Positions 1 to 49,756 of a stretch of DNA of 64,000 nucleotides are shown one piece after another. Numbering within the stretch: the first letter of the stretch is position 1; each line of letters begins with the position of its first letter. The translations under genes and the position numbers were made by a program. This stretch comes from Octopus vulgaris (Eukaryota): NCBI GenBank assembly GCA_951406725.2, contig OX597823.1, forward strand, positions 93,248,001 through 93,312,000, read 5' to 3'. The notes below the pieces were generated by a model. It ran no database searches. It worked only from the letters and a program-made list of their open reading frames with translations, and was not told the origin of the DNA.

Positions 1-1321
1 GCTAGAAATCCTCTTACTAATATTTTTAACTAAATTTTTGAATACTATAGGGGGATGGCATGAACCTACATTAATATAACTTAGTCTATCATTGGGCTTC
101 CTATAAGGCTTATAAATATTATTATTAAGATCTAAGGAAACGTCTAAGAAATTGACAACCGTCAGGTTAGTGTCTATAGTTATACTAAGTCCGAAGTGTT
201 TCATTAACTGGATAATATCCTTCCTAAAACGATCTTGTGCTGGTCCATTTGTATTAGCTGTTAAGGCGAGGGCATCATCTTTGTAGATGGCGAAATGTAC
301 GTTAGGGAATGTCTTACTGAAGGTATCTAGGAGAAAGAGTCCAATTAGATCACAGATGCCTGCCCCATCATATGAACCCATGCTCACATCGAAAGCGCCC
401 TCCGTGTCGGTGTTTTTTACCCACTTTGCATTCTCACTGAAAAGTAATGTCTTTCTAGCATGGAAGATTATATCCTTATCATTGGTACTAATTTCTATGA
501 AGTCACTAGCGAAGATTAGGGCTTTATCTAGCAGTTCTTTAGAGATAGAGGCATAAAAATCAACAATATCGAATTGTGTAAACCTCGCTTTTTTCTTATT
601 CTTAATAGCTTTAAACCAGTCTACGACTTCTATACTATTGGACCATTGCACTAGCCTAGTATCGGTCTTAATTTTCGTATTTATTTTATCTAAAATTTCT
701 TTGCTAATAATCCCTAGTTCTGACTTGGCTGGATTGATAAGCCTACATTTAGGATTGGAAAGGAAGTTTTCTTTGTGGTCTTTAATAGTAATAAAGGCCT
801 CTTTTTGGGGGAGGGTTTCTATTTTTTTATCTAATTTAAGTTTAGCGGCGATGACGCTAGCTTCTTTATTAATTTCGTTATATGTCTGTGCCCTAGCCTT
901 AGTATAATTATTAATGATGCTGTTGTGTAAGAGTTGTGTGTATTTGCTGTTATCTACCAGGTATAAGTTCTTGGTTTTATCCGAAAAAAGTGCTTTTTTC
1001 TTGGAGCTTTTTTATATGATCAATATCTTTTTTCAATTTATGTTGGAAATTGTTAAAAGACTTACGAAACTTTATTTTGCTCATGATCTTCAGCAGGTCC
1101 GCTTCGAAATCTTCCAAGCCTTTAATCCTAGGAGGGAATTTTTTGGATTTTATCCGATAGCAAATGTTTTCCTTGGTGTTCGCTTCTGTGTCAAAAAAGA
1201 AAGCCTTCCATCTCATACGCTTAATTACATCAGTAATTTTTTGCAGAAGTTTCTTAGAGTAAAAATTCTTTGATGGGATCGGTATATTTTTCATAGAATA
1301 ATCTATGTGATATGCGTCCAT
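1..1321 (-). pseudogene. Second tandem PLE ORF copy, frameshifted, continuing past the window edge
   Basis: Near-identical to 3911-2592. The T run at ~1008-1013 has 6 T versus 5 T at 3599-3603, giving the truncated 114-aa ORF 977-1321. Confidence 0.85.
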
Positions 1322-1526
1322 ATTAGATTCTTTTGTTTGTGAGAGTCCTCAACCGATGTTAGGCGATAATCCCAAAAAGGTCGTATTAGCTCTTAGTTGA
1401 GAATAACGTCGTCCGGGAGGTGATTTATTGATAAAACGGTAAGATAACAAAAGAAAGAAAGAGACCTCAATATTATGTAAATAGAGGAAATTTATCTATA
1501 CAATATGTTACATTACTCGGTAGTCA

Positions 1527-1589
1527 AGATAAAACTCTGAGTTTCAGATGCCGAAGTGGAAATCCACAACACCATCTCTTCGGTTATCT
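1527..1589 (-). ncRNA. Variant hammerhead ribozyme, inter-copy pLTR
   Basis: Reverse complement of 5991-6053. Confidence 0.7.
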
Positions 1590-1784
1590 GGCTATTTGAA
1601 AACGTTATGAAAAAATACCGTTAAAAATGAAGGGAAATTACTCTGTTATAACTCTGCTTTGCCTGCGTACTTATACATCGCTCGCATTTTTCGTCATAAA
1701 AATTATATAAAAATACATAAAAATATATAAAAAATATATAAAAATATATAAAATCTTCTTGGGACATAACACAGAAAGCATGTT

Positions 1785-3911
1785 CTATCCGTTTTCTTTA
1801 GGGGACCAAAAACGTAACAGAAATTTAGTCACATGTGGGCATGATCCGAAAAGCTCTGTCCTTGTATTTAGACATGTGGTAGGGTCTAAGCTGCTTTTCC
1901 AGATAAGCCATCTCTCCATGTCGCATAAACCGCACCTTCCGCTGCCGTTAGTATAGGGCTTACATCTGGCCAAAATCTTCCATTGTATGTTATAATCGAC
2001 ACCTTTATCTCTTAAAGACCAAATATGATTGGATAATTGTGTCGCTTTTCTTTTGTTCCAGTGCCTAAAGCTCAAAGTGTGGTTATTGAACCTGGCCTTG
2101 AAATTACCCTCTGTCAGGCCCACGTATTTCTTCGTCGAAACGGTGTCTTTAGTGGTTATAGAGTTTACGGTAGCTTCATATATGATGGTCTTGGACATGC
2201 AAGCTCCATTTAGCGGGCACAATTCTTTATTCCTGCATGAACAGCTGTTTTCTTCTTGTGTTTTTTGTATGTTATGATTGATTATGTTTTTAAAATTGGT
2301 AGTTGAACTAAAACTAATTTTTAAATTGTGTCTATTGAAGAGTTTCCTATAAGCATGGTTAACTGGAAAATGTCTATCTATCAGTGCTAGGAAATATTTA
2401 CCTATATTGAAGGCCACCTCGGGTGAGTAAGGGGGCGTAAACCAGATGACCTTCCTATTTCTATTATTCCTTTTCCTTATTGTTGGGCTGGTGATAGGTG
2501 TATATTTTATTTTTTCGCTAAAACCACTATCTTTTAAAGCTTTATTATAAACTGGGGCAACGCTATTGAAGATGTCCTCATTAGATGAGAGGCTAGAAAT
2601 CCTCTTACTAATATTTTTAACTAAATTTTTGAATACTATAGGGGGATGGCATGAACCTACATTAATATAACTTAGTCTATCATTGGGCTTCCTATAAGGC
2701 TTATAAATATTATTATTAAGATCTAAGGAAACGTCTAAGAAATTGACAACCGTCAGGTTAGTGTCTATAGTTATACTAAGTCCGAAGTGTTTCATTAACT
2801 GGATAATATCCTTCCTAAAACGATCTTGTGCTGGTCCATTTGTATTAGCTGTTAAGGCGAGGGCATCATCTTTGTAGATGGCGAAATGTACGTTAGGGAA
2901 TGTCTTACTGAAGGTATCTAGGAGAAAGAGTCCAATTAGATCACAGATGCCTGCCCCATCATATGAACCCATGCTCACATCGAAAGCGCCCTCCGTGTCG
3001 GTGTTTTTTACCCACTTTGCATTCTCACTGAAAAGTAATGTCTTTCTAGCATGGAAGATTATATCCTTATCATTGGTACTAATTTCTATGAAGTCACTAG
3101 CGAAGATTAGGGCTTTATTTAGCAGTTCTTTAGAGATAGAGGCATAAAAATCAACAATATCGAATTGTGTAAACCTCGCTTTTTTCTTATTCTTAATAGC
3201 TTTAAACCAGTCTACGACTTCTATACTATTGGACCATTGCACTAGCCTAGTATCGGTCTTAATTATCGTATTTATTTTATCTAAAATTTCTTTGCTAATA
3301 ATCCCTAGTTCTGACTTGGCTGGGTTGATAAGCCTACAATTAGGATTGGAAAGGAAGTTTTCTTTGTGGTCTTTAATAGTAATAAAGGCCTCTTTTTGGG
3401 GGAGGGTTTCTATTTTTTTATCTAATTTAAGTTTAGCGGCGATGACGCTAGCTTCTTTATTAATTTCGTTATATGTCTGTGCCCTAGCCTTAGTATAATT
3501 ATTAATGATGCTGTTATGTAAGAGTTGTGTGTATTTGCTGTTATCTACCAGGTATAAGTTCTTGGTTTTATCCGAAAAAAGTGCTTTTTTCTTGGAGCTT
3601 TTTATATGATCAATATCTTTTTTCAATTTATGTTGGAAATTGTTAAAAGACTTACGAAACTTTATTTTGCTCATGATCTTCAGCAGGTCCGCTTCGAAAT
3701 CTTCCAAGCCTTTAATCCTAGGAGGGAATTTTTTGGATTTTATCCGATAGCAAATGTTTTCCTTGGTGTTCGCTTCTGTGTCAAAAAAGAAAGCCTTCCA
3801 TCTCATACGCTTAATTACATCAGTAATTTTTTGCAGAAGTTTCTTAGAGTAAAAATACTTTGATGGGATCGGTATATTTTTCATAGAATAATCTATGTGA
3901 TATGCGTCCAT
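1785..3911 (-). CDS. Intact PLE polyprotein, 708 aa: reverse transcriptase + Cys-rich linker + C-terminal GIY-YIG endonuclease (tentatively Hydra clade)
   Basis: RT motifs FTQFDIVDFYASI, FDVSMGSYDGA, AIYKDD, VNFLDV, YRKPND. Linker CSCRNKELCPLNGAC. Endonuclease IIYEATV...KYVGLT...FKARFNNH, then RCGLC...E...LN...CPH. Confidence 0.93.
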   Translation of the reverse strand: MDAYHIDYSMKNIPIPSKYFYSKKLLQKITDVIKRMRWKAFFFDTEANTKENICYRIKSKKFPPRIKGLEDFEADLLKIMSKIKFRKSFNNFQHKLKKDIDHIKSSKKKALFSDKTKNLYLVDNSKYTQLLHNSIINNYTKARAQTYNEINKEASVIAAKLKLDKKIETLPQKEAFITIKDHKENFLSNPNCRLINPAKSELGIISKEILDKINTIIKTDTRLVQWSNSIEVVDWFKAIKNKKKARFTQFDIVDFYASISKELLNKALIFASDFIEISTNDKDIIFHARKTLLFSENAKWVKNTDTEGAFDVSMGSYDGAGICDLIGLFLLDTFSKTFPNVHFAIYKDDALALTANTNGPAQDRFRKDIIQLMKHFGLSITIDTNLTVVNFLDVSLDLNNNIYKPYRKPNDRLSYINVGSCHPPIVFKNLVKNISKRISSLSSNEDIFNSVAPVYNKALKDSGFSEKIKYTPITSPTIRKRNNRNRKVIWFTPPYSPEVAFNIGKYFLALIDRHFPVNHAYRKLFNRHNLKISFSSTTNFKNIINHNIQKTQEENSCSCRNKELCPLNGACMSKTIIYEATVNSITTKDTVSTKKYVGLTEGNFKARFNNHTLSFRHWNKRKATQLSNHIWSLRDKGVDYNIQWKILARCKPYTNGSGRCGLCDMERWLIWKSSLDPTTCLNTRTELFGSCPHVTKFLLRFWSPKENG

Positions 3912-4116
3912 ATTAGATTCTTTTGTTTGTGAGAGTCCTCAACCGATGTTAGGCGATAATCCCAAAAAGGTCGTATTAGCTCTTTGTTGAGAATAACGTC
4001 GTCCGGGAGGTGATTTATTGATAAAACGGTAAGATAACAAAAGAAAGAAAGAGACCTCAATATTATGTAAATAGAGGAAATTTATCTATACAATATGTTA
4101 CATTACTCGGTAGTCA

Positions 4117-4179
4117 AGATAAAACTCTGAGTTTCAGATGCCGAAGTGGAAATCCACAACACCATCTCTTCGGTTATCT
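4117..4179 (-). ncRNA. Variant hammerhead ribozyme, upstream pLTR copy
   Basis: Reverse complement of 5991-6053. Confidence 0.7.
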
Positions 4180-4216
4180 GGCTATTTGAAAACGTTATGA
4201 AAAAATACCGTTAAAA

Positions 4217-5794
4217 ATGAAGGGAAATTACTCTGTTATAACTAGGCTTATCAACCCAGCCAAGTCAGAACTAGGGATTATTAGCAAAGAAATTTTAGAT
4301 AAAATAAATACGAAAATTAAGACCGATACTAGGCTAGTGCAATGGTCCAATAGTATAGAAGTCGTAGACTGGTTTAAAGCTATTAAGAATAAGAAAAAAG
4401 CGAGGTTTACACAATTCGATATTGTTGATTTTTATGCCTCTATCTCTAAAGAACTGCTAGATAAAGCCCTAATCTTCGCTAGTGACTTCATAGAAATTAG
4501 TACCAATGATAAGGATATAATCTTCCATGCTAGAAAGACATTACTTTTCAGTGAGAATGCAAAGTGGGTAAAAAACACCAACACGGAGGGCGCTTTCGAT
4601 GTGAGCATGGGTTCATATGATGGGGCAGGCATCTGTGATCTAATTGGACTCTTTCTCCTAGATACCTTCAGTAAGACATTCCCTAACGTACATTTCGCCA
4701 TCTACAAAGATGATGCCCTCGCCTTAACAGCTAATACAAATGGACCAGCACAAGATCGTTTTAGGGAGGATATTATCCAGTTAATGAAACACTTCGGACT
4801 TAGTATAACTATAGACACTAACCTGACGGTTGTCAATTTCTTAGACGTTTCCTTAGATCTTAATAATAATATTTATAAGCCTTATAGGAAGCCCAATGAT
4901 AGACTAAGTTATATTAATGTAGGTTCATGCCATCCCCCTATAGTATTCAAAAATTTAGTTAAAAATATTAGTAAGAGGATTTCTAGCCTCTCATCTAATG
5001 AGGACATCTTCAATAGCGTTGCCCCAGTTTATAATAAAGCTTTAAAAGATAGTGGTTTTAGCGAAAAAATAAAATATACACCTATCACCAGCCCAACAAT
5101 AAGGAAAAGGAATAATAGAAATAGTAAGGTCATCTGGTTTACGCCCCCTTACTCACCAGAGGTGGCCTTCAATATAGGTAAATATTTCCTAGCACTGATA
5201 GATAGACATTTTCCAGTTAACCATGCTTATAGGAAACTCTTCAATAGACACAATTTAAAAATTAGTTTTAGTTCAACTACCAATTTTAAAAACATAATCC
5301 ATCATAACATACAAAAAACACAAGAAGAAAACAGCTGTTCATGCAGGAATAAAGAATTGTGCCCGCTAAATGGAGCTTGCATGTCCAAGACCATCATATA
5401 TGAAGCTACCGTAAACTCTATAACCACTAAAGACACCGTTTCGACGAAGAAATACGTGGGCCTGACAGAGGGTAATTTCAAGGCCAGGTTCAATAACCAC
5501 ACTTTGAGCTTTAGGCACTGGAACAAAAGAAAAGCGACACAATTATCCAATCATATTTGGTCTTTAAGAGATAAAGGTGTCGATTATAACATACAATGGA
5601 AGATTTTGGCCAGATGTAAGCCCTATACTAACGGCAGCGGAAGGTGCGGTTTATGCGACATGGAGAGATGGCTTATCTGGAAAAGCAGCTTAGACCCTAC
5701 CACATGTCTAAATACAAGGACAGAGCTTTTCGGATCATGCCCACATGTGACTAAATTTCTGTTACGTTTTTGGTCCCCTAAAGAAAACGGATAG
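4217..5794 (+). CDS. Inverted 5'-truncated PLE copy; 525-aa open frame with complete RT core and GIY-YIG, first 9 codons derived from the antisense pLTR
   Basis: From RLINPAKS onward it is nearly identical to the 708-aa ORF. MKGNYSVIT comes from the reverse-complemented pLTR before the junction at ~4241-4243. Confidence 0.8.
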   Translation: MKGNYSVITRLINPAKSELGIISKEILDKINTKIKTDTRLVQWSNSIEVVDWFKAIKNKKKARFTQFDIVDFYASISKELLDKALIFASDFIEISTNDKDIIFHARKTLLFSENAKWVKNTNTEGAFDVSMGSYDGAGICDLIGLFLLDTFSKTFPNVHFAIYKDDALALTANTNGPAQDRFREDIIQLMKHFGLSITIDTNLTVVNFLDVSLDLNNNIYKPYRKPNDRLSYINVGSCHPPIVFKNLVKNISKRISSLSSNEDIFNSVAPVYNKALKDSGFSEKIKYTPITSPTIRKRNNRNSKVIWFTPPYSPEVAFNIGKYFLALIDRHFPVNHAYRKLFNRHNLKISFSSTTNFKNIIHHNIQKTQEENSCSCRNKELCPLNGACMSKTIIYEATVNSITTKDTVSTKKYVGLTEGNFKARFNNHTLSFRHWNKRKATQLSNHIWSLRDKGVDYNIQWKILARCKPYTNGSGRCGLCDMERWLIWKSSLDPTTCLNTRTELFGSCPHVTKFLLRFWSPKENG

Positions 5795-6149
5795 AACATG
5801 CTTTCTGTGTTATGTCCCAAGAAGATTTTATATATTTTTATATATTTTTTTATATATTTTTATGTATTTTTATATAATTTTTATGACGAAAAATGCGAGC
5901 GATGTATAAGTACGCAGGCAAAGCAGAGTTATAACAGAGTAATTTCCCTTCATTTTTAACGGTATTTTTTCATAACGTTTTCAAATAGCCAGATAACCGA
6001 AGAGATGGTGTTGTGGATTTCCACTTCGGCATCTGAAACTCAGAGTTTTATCTTGACTACCGAGTAATGTAACATATTGTATAGATAAATTTCCTCTATT
6101 TACATAATATTGAGGTCTCTTTCTTTCTTTTGTTATCTTACCGTTTTAT

Positions 6150-6151
<2 letters not shown>
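5795..6151 (+). repeat. PLE 3' UTR / pseudo-LTR (other copies 1428-1784 and partial 4018-4241 on minus)
   Basis: Three essentially identical copies flank the ORFs and contain the HHR-like motif. Confidence 0.9.
5991..6053 (+). ncRNA. Variant type I hammerhead ribozyme in pLTR (CCGAAGA core)
   Basis: AGATAA-CCGAAGA-GATG..GTGG ATTT CCAC..CATC-T-GAAA-CTCAGAG-TT-TTATCT. Stem I AGATAA/TTATCT, stem II GATG/CATC, short stem III, GUU site. Confidence 0.7.
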
Positions 6152-6210
<59 letters not shown>

Positions 6211-12255: not shown

Positions 12256-12596
12256 TGCACAGTAAAGGAGCCTTGGATCTAGGTTAGAAACCGGCTGTTT
12301 CGCTATTAGCAAGATACTTTGAAATAAAAATGAATGATGACATACATACGTATGTATGTATACTATAAGAAGAAAATGGGATTACAAATTGCAGGCCGAT
12401 ATCAACAAAGTACTCAGAAGAGTACAAGAAGAGAATTTATTATTAAACATGACAATTGTTTCGAGACATCTAACATCAATCCCTCACAGGTAAGACACTC
12501 AGATGAGCTCCACATTACAGATTAAATCATCCAAAACATTCCACCGGTTAGTCACTAGTATATAAGGAGAATGTTAGCGATTATCATAGTAATACA

Positions 12597-12730
<134 letters not shown>

Positions 12731-46227: not shown

Positions 46228-46700
46228 GTGTGTCGCCTAGTGGTTATACGCGTTGCACTTTCAATCCTGAGGTCGTGGTTTCGATTCCCAAATTGGCTGC
46301 TGTTTGCTTATATACGTTTATGTGAAGGCAATTAGAGTAGTGGTTATGCGCGTTGCACTTACAATCCCAAGGTCGTGGTTTCGATTCCCAAACTAGCTCT
46401 CACTTGCCTACAGACGTTTAAGTGGAAACACGCGGCCTAATGGTCATGCGCGTTAGATTTACAATCCTGAGGCCATGGTTTCAAATCCCAAACTGGCTGC
46501 ACGTTGTGCTCTTGACCAAAACACTTTTCGGCTCAGTTGTAAATACGTAACCTAGCAATGGAATACCCTTCCGATCCAGGGGCATGTTAGCCTGCTCACC
46601 TACCCACCGGGGTGGTATCATTCGAAAACTAAAACAATACAAAATGCAAATTGCATTGTGACCAGCGATGTATAACATGCAATAATCTTTATGATCCCGT
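46228..46700 (+). mobile_element. SINE with triplicated tRNA-like head (~100-bp period)
   Basis: tagtggttat.cgcgtt..ttacaatcc..aggtcgtggtttcgattcccaaa occurs at ~46235, ~46338 and ~46435; the third continues into a SINE body. Confidence 0.75.
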
Positions 46701-46730: not shown

Positions 46731-46840
46731 TATTGATAAAAACGGTAAGACAAGAATATGGTGGCGTGGATTTCCACCTCGGCATCCGAAACTCGGAGTT
46801 TTATCATCGCTACCAAATAATTGTCACATATTACATTTAC
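46731..46840. mobile_element. Rearranged solo pLTR fragment related to the PLE at 1-6151
   Basis: attgataaaaacggtaaga is the reverse complement of the pLTR 3' end. It is followed by atggtggcgtggatttccacctcggcatccgaaactcggagttttatc, a diverged copy of the pLTR HHR (6005-6052). Confidence 0.75.
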
Positions 46841-46852
46841 AGATACACACAT

Positions 46853-46913
<61 letters not shown>

Positions 46914-47057
46914 TAAATATAAGAGAGTGGTCACTATATGGCTCACTCTAGCACCAGTTAATCCAAAAGGTTTCAACCACGAAAATACATGTTTCCCATG
47001 AAAGTCAGTACGATTGTTAGCTCACACGGACAGGGCAAATAAAAAATAACAAAAATA

Positions 47058-47154
47058 CAGATTATTTTGGGACAATTGTTTCGCTATTAATGAATTAAAT
47101 GTAATTTTACTTACAAAAAAAATCCATTTGTAGCTCGTCAGCCAAAACTATCTG
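47058..47154 (-). ncRNA. Canonical type I hammerhead, unit 1
   Basis: Minus: CAGATAGTTTTGG-CTGACGA-GCTA..AATGGATT..TGTAA/TTACA..AATTCATT..TAGC-GAAAC AATT GTC-CCAAAATAATCTG; GUC site. Confidence 0.92.
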
Positions 47155-47600
47155 GATGAAATCCACTCAATCACACGCCAGATTTTACCATAACGATAAA
47201 TACGCGTGTGGTTCAATTGATTACATCCGACGTTATAATTCAAATGCCCCAACTAACAGCGCGCCAAACTTTCACGGAAAACAATTACAGCATTTAGAAA
47301 TAAATGCAGCATAATTATAATTAATTAATAAGGGTGAGAGAATTAGATACTAATTTAATAGTATATCTATTCAACACCAAGTGGCCTAGTGCTACGAGAA
47401 ACCTGGATTATTATAATATTTTATAACATATTATAATATTTTTACAAAATAAATATAAGAGAGTGGTCACTATATGGCTCACTCTAGCACCAGTTAATCC
47501 AAAAGGTTTCAACCACGAAAATACATGTTTCCCATGAAAGTCAGTACGATTGTTAGCTCACACGGACAGGGCAAATAAAAAATAACAAAAATACAGATTA

Positions 47601-47683
47601 TTTTGGGACAATTGTTTCGCTATTAATGAATTAAATGTAATTTTACTTACAAAAAAAATCCATTTGTAGCTCGTCAGCCCAAA
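47601..47683 (-). ncRNA. Type I hammerhead, unit 2 (one stem I mismatch)
   Basis: As unit 1, with cagcccaaac instead of cagccaaaac. Confidence 0.88.
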
Positions 47684-48136
47684 CTATCTGGATGAAATCC
47701 ACTCAATCACATGCCAGATTTTACCATAACGATAAATACGCGTGTGGTTCAATTGATTACATCCGACGTTATAATTCAAATGCCCCAACTAACAGCGCGC
47801 CAAACTTTCACGGAAAACAATTACAGCATTTAGAAATAAATGCAGCATAATTATAATTAATTAATAAGGGTGAGAGAATTAGATACTAATTTAATAGTAT
47901 ATCTATTCAACACCAAGTGGCCTAGTGCTACGAGAAACCTGGATTATTATAATATTTTATAACATATTATAATATTTTTACAAAATAAATATAAGAGAGT
48001 GGTCACTATATGGCTCACTCTAGCACCAGTTAATCCAAAAGGTTTCAACCACGAAAATACATGTTTCCCATGAAAGTCAGTACGATTGTTAGCTCACACG
48101 GACAGGGCAAATAAAAAATAACAAAAATACAGATTA

Positions 48137-48218
48137 TTTTGGGACAATTGTTTCGCTATTAATGAATTAAATGTAATTTTACTTACAAAAAAATCCATTT
48201 GTAGCTCGTCAGCCAAAA
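48137..48218 (-). ncRNA. Type I hammerhead, unit 3
   Basis: As unit 1; A run one base shorter. Confidence 0.9.
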
Positions 48219-48671
48219 CTATCTGGATGAAATCCACTCAATCACACGCCAGATTTTACCATAACGATAAATACGCGTGTGGTTCAATTGATTACATCCG
48301 ACGTTATAATTCAAATGCCCCAACTAACAGCGCGCCAAACTTTCACGGAAAACAAATACAGCATTTAGAAATAAATGCAGCATAATTATAATTAATTAAT
48401 AAGGGTGAGAGAATTAGATACTAATTTAATAGTATATCTATTCAACACCAAGTGGCCTAGTGCTACGAGAAACCTTGATTATTATAATATTTTATAACAT
48501 ATTATAATATTTTTACAAAATAAATATAAGAGAGTGGTCACTATATGGCTCACTCTAGCACCAGTTAATCCAAAAGGTTTCAACCACGAAAATACATGTT
48601 TCCCATGAAAGTCAGTACGATTGTTAGCTCACACGGACAGGGCAAATAAAAAATAACAAAAATACAGATTA

Positions 48672-48754
48672 TTTTGGGACAATTGTTTCGCTATTAATGA
48701 ATTAAATGTAATTTTACTTACAAAAAAAATCCATTTGTAGCTCGTCAGCCAAAA
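48672..48754 (-). ncRNA. Type I hammerhead, unit 4
   Basis: As unit 1. Confidence 0.9.
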
Positions 48755-49207
48755 CTATCTGGATGAAATCCACTCAATCACACGCCAGATTTTACCATAA
48801 CGATAAATACGCGTGTGGTTCAATTGATTACATCCGACGTTATAATTCAAATGCCCCAACTAACAGCGCGCCAAACTTTCACGGAAAACAAATACAGCAT
48901 TTAGAAATAAATGCAGCATAATTATAATTAATTAATAAGGGTGAGAGAATTAGATACTAATTTAATAGTATATCTATTCAACACCAAGTGGCCTAGTGCT
49001 ACGAGAAACCTGGATTATTATAATATTTTATAACATATTATAATATTTTTACAAAATAAATATAAGAGAGTGGTCACTATATGGCTCACTCTAGCACCAG
49101 TTAATCCAAAAGGTTTCAACGATGAAAATACATGTTTCCCATGAAAGTCAGTACGATTGTTAGCTCACACGGACAGGGCAAATAAAAAATAACAAAAATA
49201 CAGATTA

Positions 49208-49290
49208 TTTTGGGACAATTGTTTCGCTATTAATGAATTAAATGTAATTTTACTTACAAAAAAAATCCATTTGTAGCTCGTCAGCCAAAA
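49208..49290 (-). ncRNA. Type I hammerhead, unit 5
   Basis: As unit 1. Confidence 0.9.
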
Positions 49291-49592
49291 CTATCTGGAT
49301 GAAATCCACTCAATCACACGCCAGATTTTACCATAACGATAAATACGCGTGTGGTTCAATTGATTACATCCGACGTTATAATTCAAATGCCCCAACTAAC
49401 AGCGCGCCAAACTTTCACGGAAAACAAATACAGCATTTAGAAATAAATGCAGCATAATTATAATTAATTAATAAGGGTGAGAGAATTAGATACTAATTTA
49501 ATAGTATATCTATTCAACACCAAGTGGCCTAGTGCTACGAGAAACCTGGATTATTATAATATTTTATAACATATTATAATATTTTTACAAAA

Positions 49593-49678
49593 TTATAATC
49601 CAGGTTTCTCGTAGCACTAGGCCACTTGGTGTTGAATAGATATACTATTAAATTAGTATCTAATTCTCTCATCCTTAA

Positions 49679-49685
<7 letters not shown>
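49593..49685 (+). repeat. Inverted ~90-bp terminal fragment of the 536-bp unit, fused to (TA)n
   Basis: Reverse complement of ~49461-49555 with one substitution and a 3-bp deletion. Confidence 0.9.

Positions 49686-49756
<71 letters not shown>

Follow-up and report, generated by a model that had tools for sequence, protein, structure and literature searches.

The five-unit hammerhead array in the window, by which we mean the whole 64,000-nt stretch of Octopus vulgaris DNA analysed here (contig OX597823.1, positions 93,248,001 to 93,312,000 of the forward strand), is one insertion of a young, dispersed and protein-free tandem repeat. Two-armed insertions of this 536-base family follow a countable rule, with one arm ending at a fixed 3' position termed A and the other at a second fixed position termed B. 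The element itself belongs to a published class of hammerhead retrotransposons (retrozymes), and its main interest is its insertion footprint, which is that of Penelope-type integration. We consider it likely that an autonomous Penelope-like element (PLE) supplied the enzyme that wrote the array into a TA tract by copying one monomer RNA, most likely a circle.

The array consists of two arms, described here in a monomer numbering in which position 1 is the first base after the hammerhead cut. The long arm (46911..49593, minus strand) comprises 5.0 head-to-tail units of 535-536 bp (2,683 nt), which differ from each other at 1-5 positions; it starts at monomer position 157 and finishes at the fixed A end (position 160). 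The short arm (about 49594..49687, plus strand) is inverted and extends from monomer position ~191-196 to the fixed B end (~291), pointing outward into (TA)n; its B end carries one substitution and a small deletion. The target tracts are located at 46863..46910 on the left, where the A junction shows an additional (ATTT) stutter, and at 49688..49755 on the right. The A-to-B region, ~130 nt in length and the equivalent of the Penelope 'tail', occupies 47316..47446 (minus strand) in one internal unit. An earlier sequence-only reading had described five near-identical, non-coding 536-bp units followed by a short inverted fragment. The units were borne out, as was their lack of coding potential, given that the longest stop-free frames of the circular monomer (GC content 32%) span 48 aa on the sense and 69 aa on the antisense strand. 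The inverted piece is present as well, but it is no mere fragment: it constitutes a second arm reaching the fixed B end. Further to the left, three tandem 100-bp tRNA-like units (46235-46500; 76-85% alike) are probably a SINE array.

Each unit of the long arm contains a minus-strand type I hammerhead motif, as had been claimed, with CTGACGA located 64-65 nt upstream of all five copies of GAAAC-AATT-GTC. The positions of the latter exactly reproduce the cuts predicted from the first reading. The first hammerhead (47058..47154; predicted cut 47071/47070) combines a stem I with an internal loop, CUGACGA, a 52-nt stem II and GAAAC-AAUU-GUC. It is followed on the same strand by those at 47594..47690 (47607/47606), with one stem I mismatch (47680); 48130..48225 (48143/48142), where the stem II U-run is shorter by one base; 48665..48761 (48678/48677); and 49201..49297 (49214/49213). 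The four cut-to-cut monomers measure 536, 536, 535, and 536 nt. The monomer displays the CUGANGA and GAAA core, the NUH triplet and the three helices with open helix I that define type I, and a type I descriptor matched the sense strand once but neither the antisense strand nor any of 5,000 base shuffles. Rfam, proposed earlier as a check, returned no hammerhead family for the array, neither at gathering score nor at E<=10, probably because stem II is 52 nt long. The description of the motif as 'textbook' therefore holds for the core but not for the helix lengths. Helix III has 2 bp only and is closed by a palindromic AAUU. This makes a double-hammerhead mode probable (computed self-dimer of the 8-nt palindrome, -6.4 kcal/mol), and such a mode has been reported for axolotl motifs (PMC7229834).

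At the level of RNA structure, the core is wrongly paired to the cleavage triplet in the local fold of minimum energy, and opening the core by force costs 4.6 kcal/mol. The predicted circular fold of the monomer reaches -151.8 kcal/mol (z=-6.2, 40 dinucleotide shuffles; 67% of the bases paired), compared to -116.5 kcal/mol for the opposite strand; it puts A within a linker that is unpaired, and B at an AU hairpin. The core and stems are conserved among copies: core changes that are fixed array-wide are limited to the free position 7 and U4C, and a G8A core change, found in 6/222 units, is in no multi-unit array fixed. One subfamily carries a compensatory U-A to C-G exchange in stem I, the mismatched state being common in others. 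Over the whole circle, pair-breaking changes account for 19/61 inherited and 27/58 single-unit changes, a difference that is not significant (p=0.09). The predicted fold and the conservation of core and stems are evidence for a constraint acting at the RNA level.

The first reading named the possibility that the unit exists as an ordinary tandem duplication at this locus only, and proposed a survey of dispersed copies and array lengths. This survey, run on the 2.8 Gb genome (227 contigs), recovered 2,064 exact copies of the 32-nt cut-site junction, the first 100 places of which represent 32 loci, along with 260 further copies of a variant junction and 816 exact B-end/TA junctions. A single-locus duplication fails to account for these numbers, and the 536-base repeat is a young, protein-free family of varied array length, dispersed at hundreds of TA-repeat sites. 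Most of the repeat sequence is also present in sequencing runs deposited under three organism labels in 7 studies, and none of the 20 runs containing it is recorded as RNA. For the analysis of individual insertions, we used a sample of 81 including the window, composed of 38 best-scoring loci (from an initial search that scored 39 of 1,030 candidates), 31 taken in order along one contig (C1), and 12 picked for their B end, the latter chosen without an exact junction nearby. A (TA) run lies within 30 nt of the outer 3' end in 122/126 cases.

The outer 3' ends fall at two points, A (~157-164 nt after the predicted cut) and B (~287-291), which are ~130 nt apart. Two arms, facing outward, were found in 45 of the 81 insertions, and 44 of these combine one A with one B end; A+A and B+B pairs are absent, and one case was unresolved. 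Among the 36 one-armed insertions, 17 have their end at A, 18 at B and one at another position. Position lists from two pattern searches (89 B ends and 61 A ends), sharing loci with this sample, likewise contain 27 A-B pairs in tail-out orientation and none of A with A or B with B; the genome-wide A-end pattern was used for positions only, its count being inflated by overlapping matches. Central joints, examined in 34 simple cases, are blunt (5), show 1-6 nt overlap (11), or carry a short gap or insert (18). Arms ending at A and B do not differ in length (medians 799 vs 636 nt, p=0.33), and arms can reach 6,810 nt and 12.7 units. The insertion features expected of a non-autonomous PLE-mobilised element, i.e. 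two fixed 3' ends, an inverted 5' arm and a microsatellite target, are present. A fixed target-site duplication is not established, as an 11-nt duplication is clear at only 2/19 loci and fails at 9, which counts against the model. Apparent arm ends at the cut site turned out to be BLAST splitting artefacts that were gone under exact mapping. Extra internal restarts, e.g. an arm containing another piece that ends at A or B, were observed at four loci (L085, 5956-7451; L086; L048; L068), which suggests repeated priming or nested insertion.

Sequence variation among units provides information on the template. Divergence, computed over 413 unmasked columns from which homopolymer runs and one AT-rich tract were excluded, is 0.33% between full units of the same insertion vs 1.9% between insertions (142 units, 51 loci); in the C1 sample, the values are 0.27% within, 2.3% between, and 0.01% across arms. 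The 32 loci with at least two full units display 21 majority haplotypes. Nine variants are restricted to a single locus relative to the 69 loci analysed, each of them occupying all 3-8 units that cover the site, and seven of the nine are present in both arms. At non-majority sites the two arms agree in 84/100 cases, and the 16 disagreements are nearly all single-unit changes. A mutation of one parent unit that appears array-wide in the daughter implies that this unit has been copied repeatedly. In addition, 241/243 crossings of the cut site have the exact inter-anchor length, which favours a covalently closed template, and the 5' ends show a uniform distribution over the monomer (113 pieces, KS p=0.61), with one located within 10 nt of the cut vs 4.2 expected. 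Judged from these genomic copies, the pattern favours repeated copying of one monomer, which would most simply be a circle.

The same twin priming could also have used an uncut linear multimer of the parent array, making the hammerhead incidental, with later homogenisation by gene conversion or duplication. PAc, a PLE of the Poseidon type, provides a precedent: in vitro, mutating its hammerhead leaves insertion normal and the substrate is mainly uncut RNA, so that processing by the hammerhead is dispensable (PMC11167929). Uniform 5' ends and clean cut-site crossings are equally compatible with a multimer, the possible mispairing of the core in the local fold fits as well, and mosaic arrays do occur. 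However, variants fixed over up to 8 units and in both arms, together with 21 haplotypes in 32 arrays, indicate repeated single-unit bottlenecks; no unit-by-unit pattern common to arrays was seen by eye, and array growth would need an extra step. We therefore regard a multimeric template as unlikely, though it is the strongest competitor of the circle.

A cleaved linear monomer, on which the reverse transcriptase (RT) jumps repeatedly from the 5' end back to the 3' end, would also account for homogeneity at the monomer level. The locus L057 (1038-3697) could be read in this way, as its otherwise uniform array contains one foreign-haplotype unit and the switch interval includes the cut. Yet, such jumps should leave scars at the cut, where 241 of 243 crossings are exact, and stops at the same place, where 5' ends show no enrichment. 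This reading appears improbable to us, clearly more so than copying from a multimer. The arrays of L060, L083 and the window are partly mosaic as well, with mosaic variants recurring in the long arrays of L060 and L083, and this counts against copying from a circle because a single circle does not predict it; the mosaics could be due to gene conversion, to switches of template or to errors in polishing. Single-unit changes are biased towards G>A (27 vs 10 C>T), and 30/37 correspond to C>T on the plus strand of the assembly. We dropped this excess as a mark of reverse transcription or deamination and treat it as assembly error because it follows the assembly strand, and for the same reason the noise within arrays is probably in part assembly error.

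Taken together, our preferred model of a Penelope enzyme copying a circular monomer would involve the following steps. A minus-strand read-through transcript would be cleaved at every hammerhead, probably in the double-hammerhead mode, to yield 536-nt monomers, which a host ligase may then close into circles, as in the retrozymes of coral, mussel, and axolotl. A Penelope RT-endonuclease, probably a dimer, would nick both strands of a (TA)n tract; on a single RNA, one nick would prime at A and its counterpart at B, 130 nt away, matching the pattern observed in the genome. Each polymerase would travel round the template through the cut site for a variable length and stop at random, and the joining of the two copies head to head would produce the observed anatomy, in which both arms face outward, with A at the end of one and B at the end of the other. 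Loss or extreme shortness of one arm could account for one-armed inserts. The first reading had suggested rolling-circle-like reverse transcription by a TA-targeting PLE. Both parts of this proposal receive indirect genomic support: the Penelope link from the A+B anatomy, the TA targets and the same rule in autonomous families (below), and monomer-level copying from insertion haplotypes, private variants shared by both arms and clean crossings. Circle-templated synthesis of tandem cDNA is the model proposed for animal retrozymes (PMC7229834). Evidence against it comes from a survey of Xenopus, in which 8/9 tested retrozyme dimers showed no cleavage (bioRxiv 10.64898/2026.07.22.740005).

A dimer holding one circle at two unequal fixed starts might moreover be the missing integration step of Penelope-type retrotransposition, a broader proposal, based on genomic sequences, for which we see the chances as evenly balanced. 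If true, such a mechanism would account for retrozyme arrays, for the tandem and inverted pseudo-LTRs of PLEs and for their one-sided tail, and a 536-nt circle with starts 130 nt apart would provide a minimal test substrate.

Potential partners are encoded in the same genome, and one of them lies in the window itself. This Hydra-type element (window 1-6152, its left arm continuing ~1 kb further outside the window; L161) is young, two-armed and tandem, with a unit of ~2,590 bp, a 717-aa frame, ORFs at 1785-3938 (minus strand) and 4190-5794 (plus strand), and a hammerhead motif with U4C at ~5996-6052. The motifs RWK, DKT, CxCX5C, CxxC, and CxH, which define the Hydra clade (PMC8557442), are present when read by eye. 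Its left arm runs to its own A site and its right arm to its own B site. A first look yielded 641 candidates for this family, and the 40 that were scored are 99-100% identical; A+B pairing is found in 6/7 two-armed insertions, with ends ~70 nt apart, and the seventh has an intermediate end. A second family (L129-L146) encodes a 781-aa protein with RT and GIY-YIG domains and is likewise abundant and young. Its frames are intact and 95-99% identical, its 5' region is long and AC-rich, and it has a degenerate hammerhead-like motif and two ends that abut TA and lie 40 nt apart. All three of its two-armed copies (20 loci fetched) are A+B, so that the rule holds for 9/10 two-armed insertions when both autonomous TA-targeting families are pooled. 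The A-B spacing of 130 nt in the 536-nt unit exceeds the ~40 and ~70 nt of these families, which counts against the partner model. About 70 bp to the left of the array and in the same TA-rich patch, the window also contains what is left of a terminal repeat of a related Hydra-type element (46734-46845), a tiny two-armed piece composed of an inverted B end, the 3' half of a hammerhead, and an A end. Next to a (TAT)n tract, a further GAAAC-AATT-GTC motif whose core is degenerate (~12440-12600, minus strand) is probably an old Penelope-type end.

The relationship between the monomer and these elements was also assessed by sequence similarity. Blastn of the monomer against 50 GIY-YIG loci, from a partner search in which 150 of 6,136 candidates were scored, gave no match, and reading the 3' ends of 14 further loci revealed no obvious match. 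The B end of the monomer shows a weak likeness to Hydra tails (reached by 6-17 of 1,000 shuffles at 25 nt), this being one of 12 comparisons and picked by eye post hoc; the A end is nearer to the 781-aa family than to the Hydra type. These data also speak to whether the unit is the terminal repeat of an autonomous PLE, or a satellite derived from such a repeat via unequal crossing-over. Xenopus retrozymes resemble PLE terminal repeats, and local amplification has been proposed for them (bioRxiv 10.64898/2026.07.22.740005). In octopus, however, none of the 81 insertions sampled from the family is joined to an RT or GIY-YIG ORF or to any other element sequence, as all are bounded by flank; the 50 GIY-YIG loci lack a match; and fixed 3' ends, random 5' ends and inverted arms mark insertion rather than crossing-over. 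We thus consider an origin as terminal repeat or satellite highly improbable, and copying in trans by a PLE enzyme remains our preferred explanation.

Several leads concern transcription of the monomer. An snRNA-type promoter has been reported for newt satellite 2 (cited in PMC2220036); no such promoter was found in the octopus monomer, where the best matrix score is 2.8 (sense strand) vs 14-22 in the training set, and was matched by 237/300 shuffles. The U1/U2 loci used here (L229-L268) have a hexamer at -64 to -52 in common (37/40), which may serve as a proximal promoter element. Read-through by Pol III would be unlikely given the sense-strand U-runs of 5-8. A-to-I editing fixed in genomic copies is not supported by the inherited changes (16 A>G vs 10 T>C), the polarity of which is ambiguous. 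One contig from a sequencing run (X3; depth 11, guessed to be RNA) carries five plus-strand T>C changes at 47592-47604, which read as A>G on the strand of the ribozyme; four of the five lie in stem I, directly past the predicted cut. These changes could reflect A-to-I editing that weakens the hammerhead.

With its tandem non-coding hammerhead units, low GC content, dispersed and varied arrays and highly paired predicted circle, and without an LTR, the octopus unit fits the published class of animal non-LTR retrozymes, here as judged from sequence and predicted fold. The class, its circles, and the proposed PLE partnership have been described (PMC7229834; bioRxiv 10.64898/2026.07.22.740005), and cleavage and circles have been demonstrated for coral, mussel, and axolotl retrozymes (PMC7229834). 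Genome re-entry, according to the available portions of both reports, has been proposed rather than demonstrated. Our literature search returned no octopus retrozyme, no account of the 536-bp family and no counted A+B rule; the supplement to PMC7229834 may bear on molluscan examples and on the insertion model. For the giant squid genome, 235 hammerheads are listed, with no accompanying analysis in the available part of the report (PMC6962438).

Like the coral, mussel, and axolotl elements (Cervera and de la Pena, 2020; PMC7229834), the octopus unit is non-coding, has a GC content below 50%, carries tandem type I hammerheads and lacks an LTR. It also has a highly paired predicted circle and PLEs in the same genome, and resembles the axolotl motifs in its short helix III with a tetraloop. 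It differs in length (536 vs ~170-400 nt) and has a stem II of 52 nt, and its two fixed 3' ends with head-to-head A+B arms are a feature that the available text of that study does not describe. Similarly, the octopus unit shares at least two consecutive hammerhead units and PLE co-occurrence with vertebrate retrozymes (Li, Clavereau and Pollet; bioRxiv 10.64898/2026.07.22.740005), and its unit length and array size are within the vertebrate range (consensus 51-972 bp). The link to PLEs, in contrast, is based on terminal-repeat homology in vertebrates, for which local amplification is favoured, as far as the accessible part of that preprint goes, whereas in octopus it relies on insertion anatomy, the searches having found no PLE homology.

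The closest parallels to this anatomy are found among PLEs. PAc/Poseidon (Frangieh, 2024; PMC11167929), the Hydra clade and non-autonomous Chlamys elements (Craig, 2021; PMC8557442) have AT-rich or (TA)n targets like the octopus unit, and two fixed internal RT starts, a tail at one end, an inverted 5'-truncated arm and tandem copies are common to all of them. Unlike PLEs, the octopus unit has no ORF, and its A-B distance of 130 nt compares to tails of 30-40 nt (PMC11167929; PMC8557442). The origin of tandem and inverted structures in PLEs has been named as an open task by Craig et al. (PMC8557442). The pairing of one A with one B end, which is treated qualitatively in the available parts of both studies, has been counted in octopus, and the resulting footprint allows specific predictions to be derived from a mechanism so far proposed. 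The family is young, abundant and found alongside intact TA-targeting PLE ORFs, and it provides a countable rule, in which each insertion has one A end, one B end, and one haplotype. For RNA-templated genome writing, too, a system that places many tandem copies of such a small circle in a microsatellite would be of interest.
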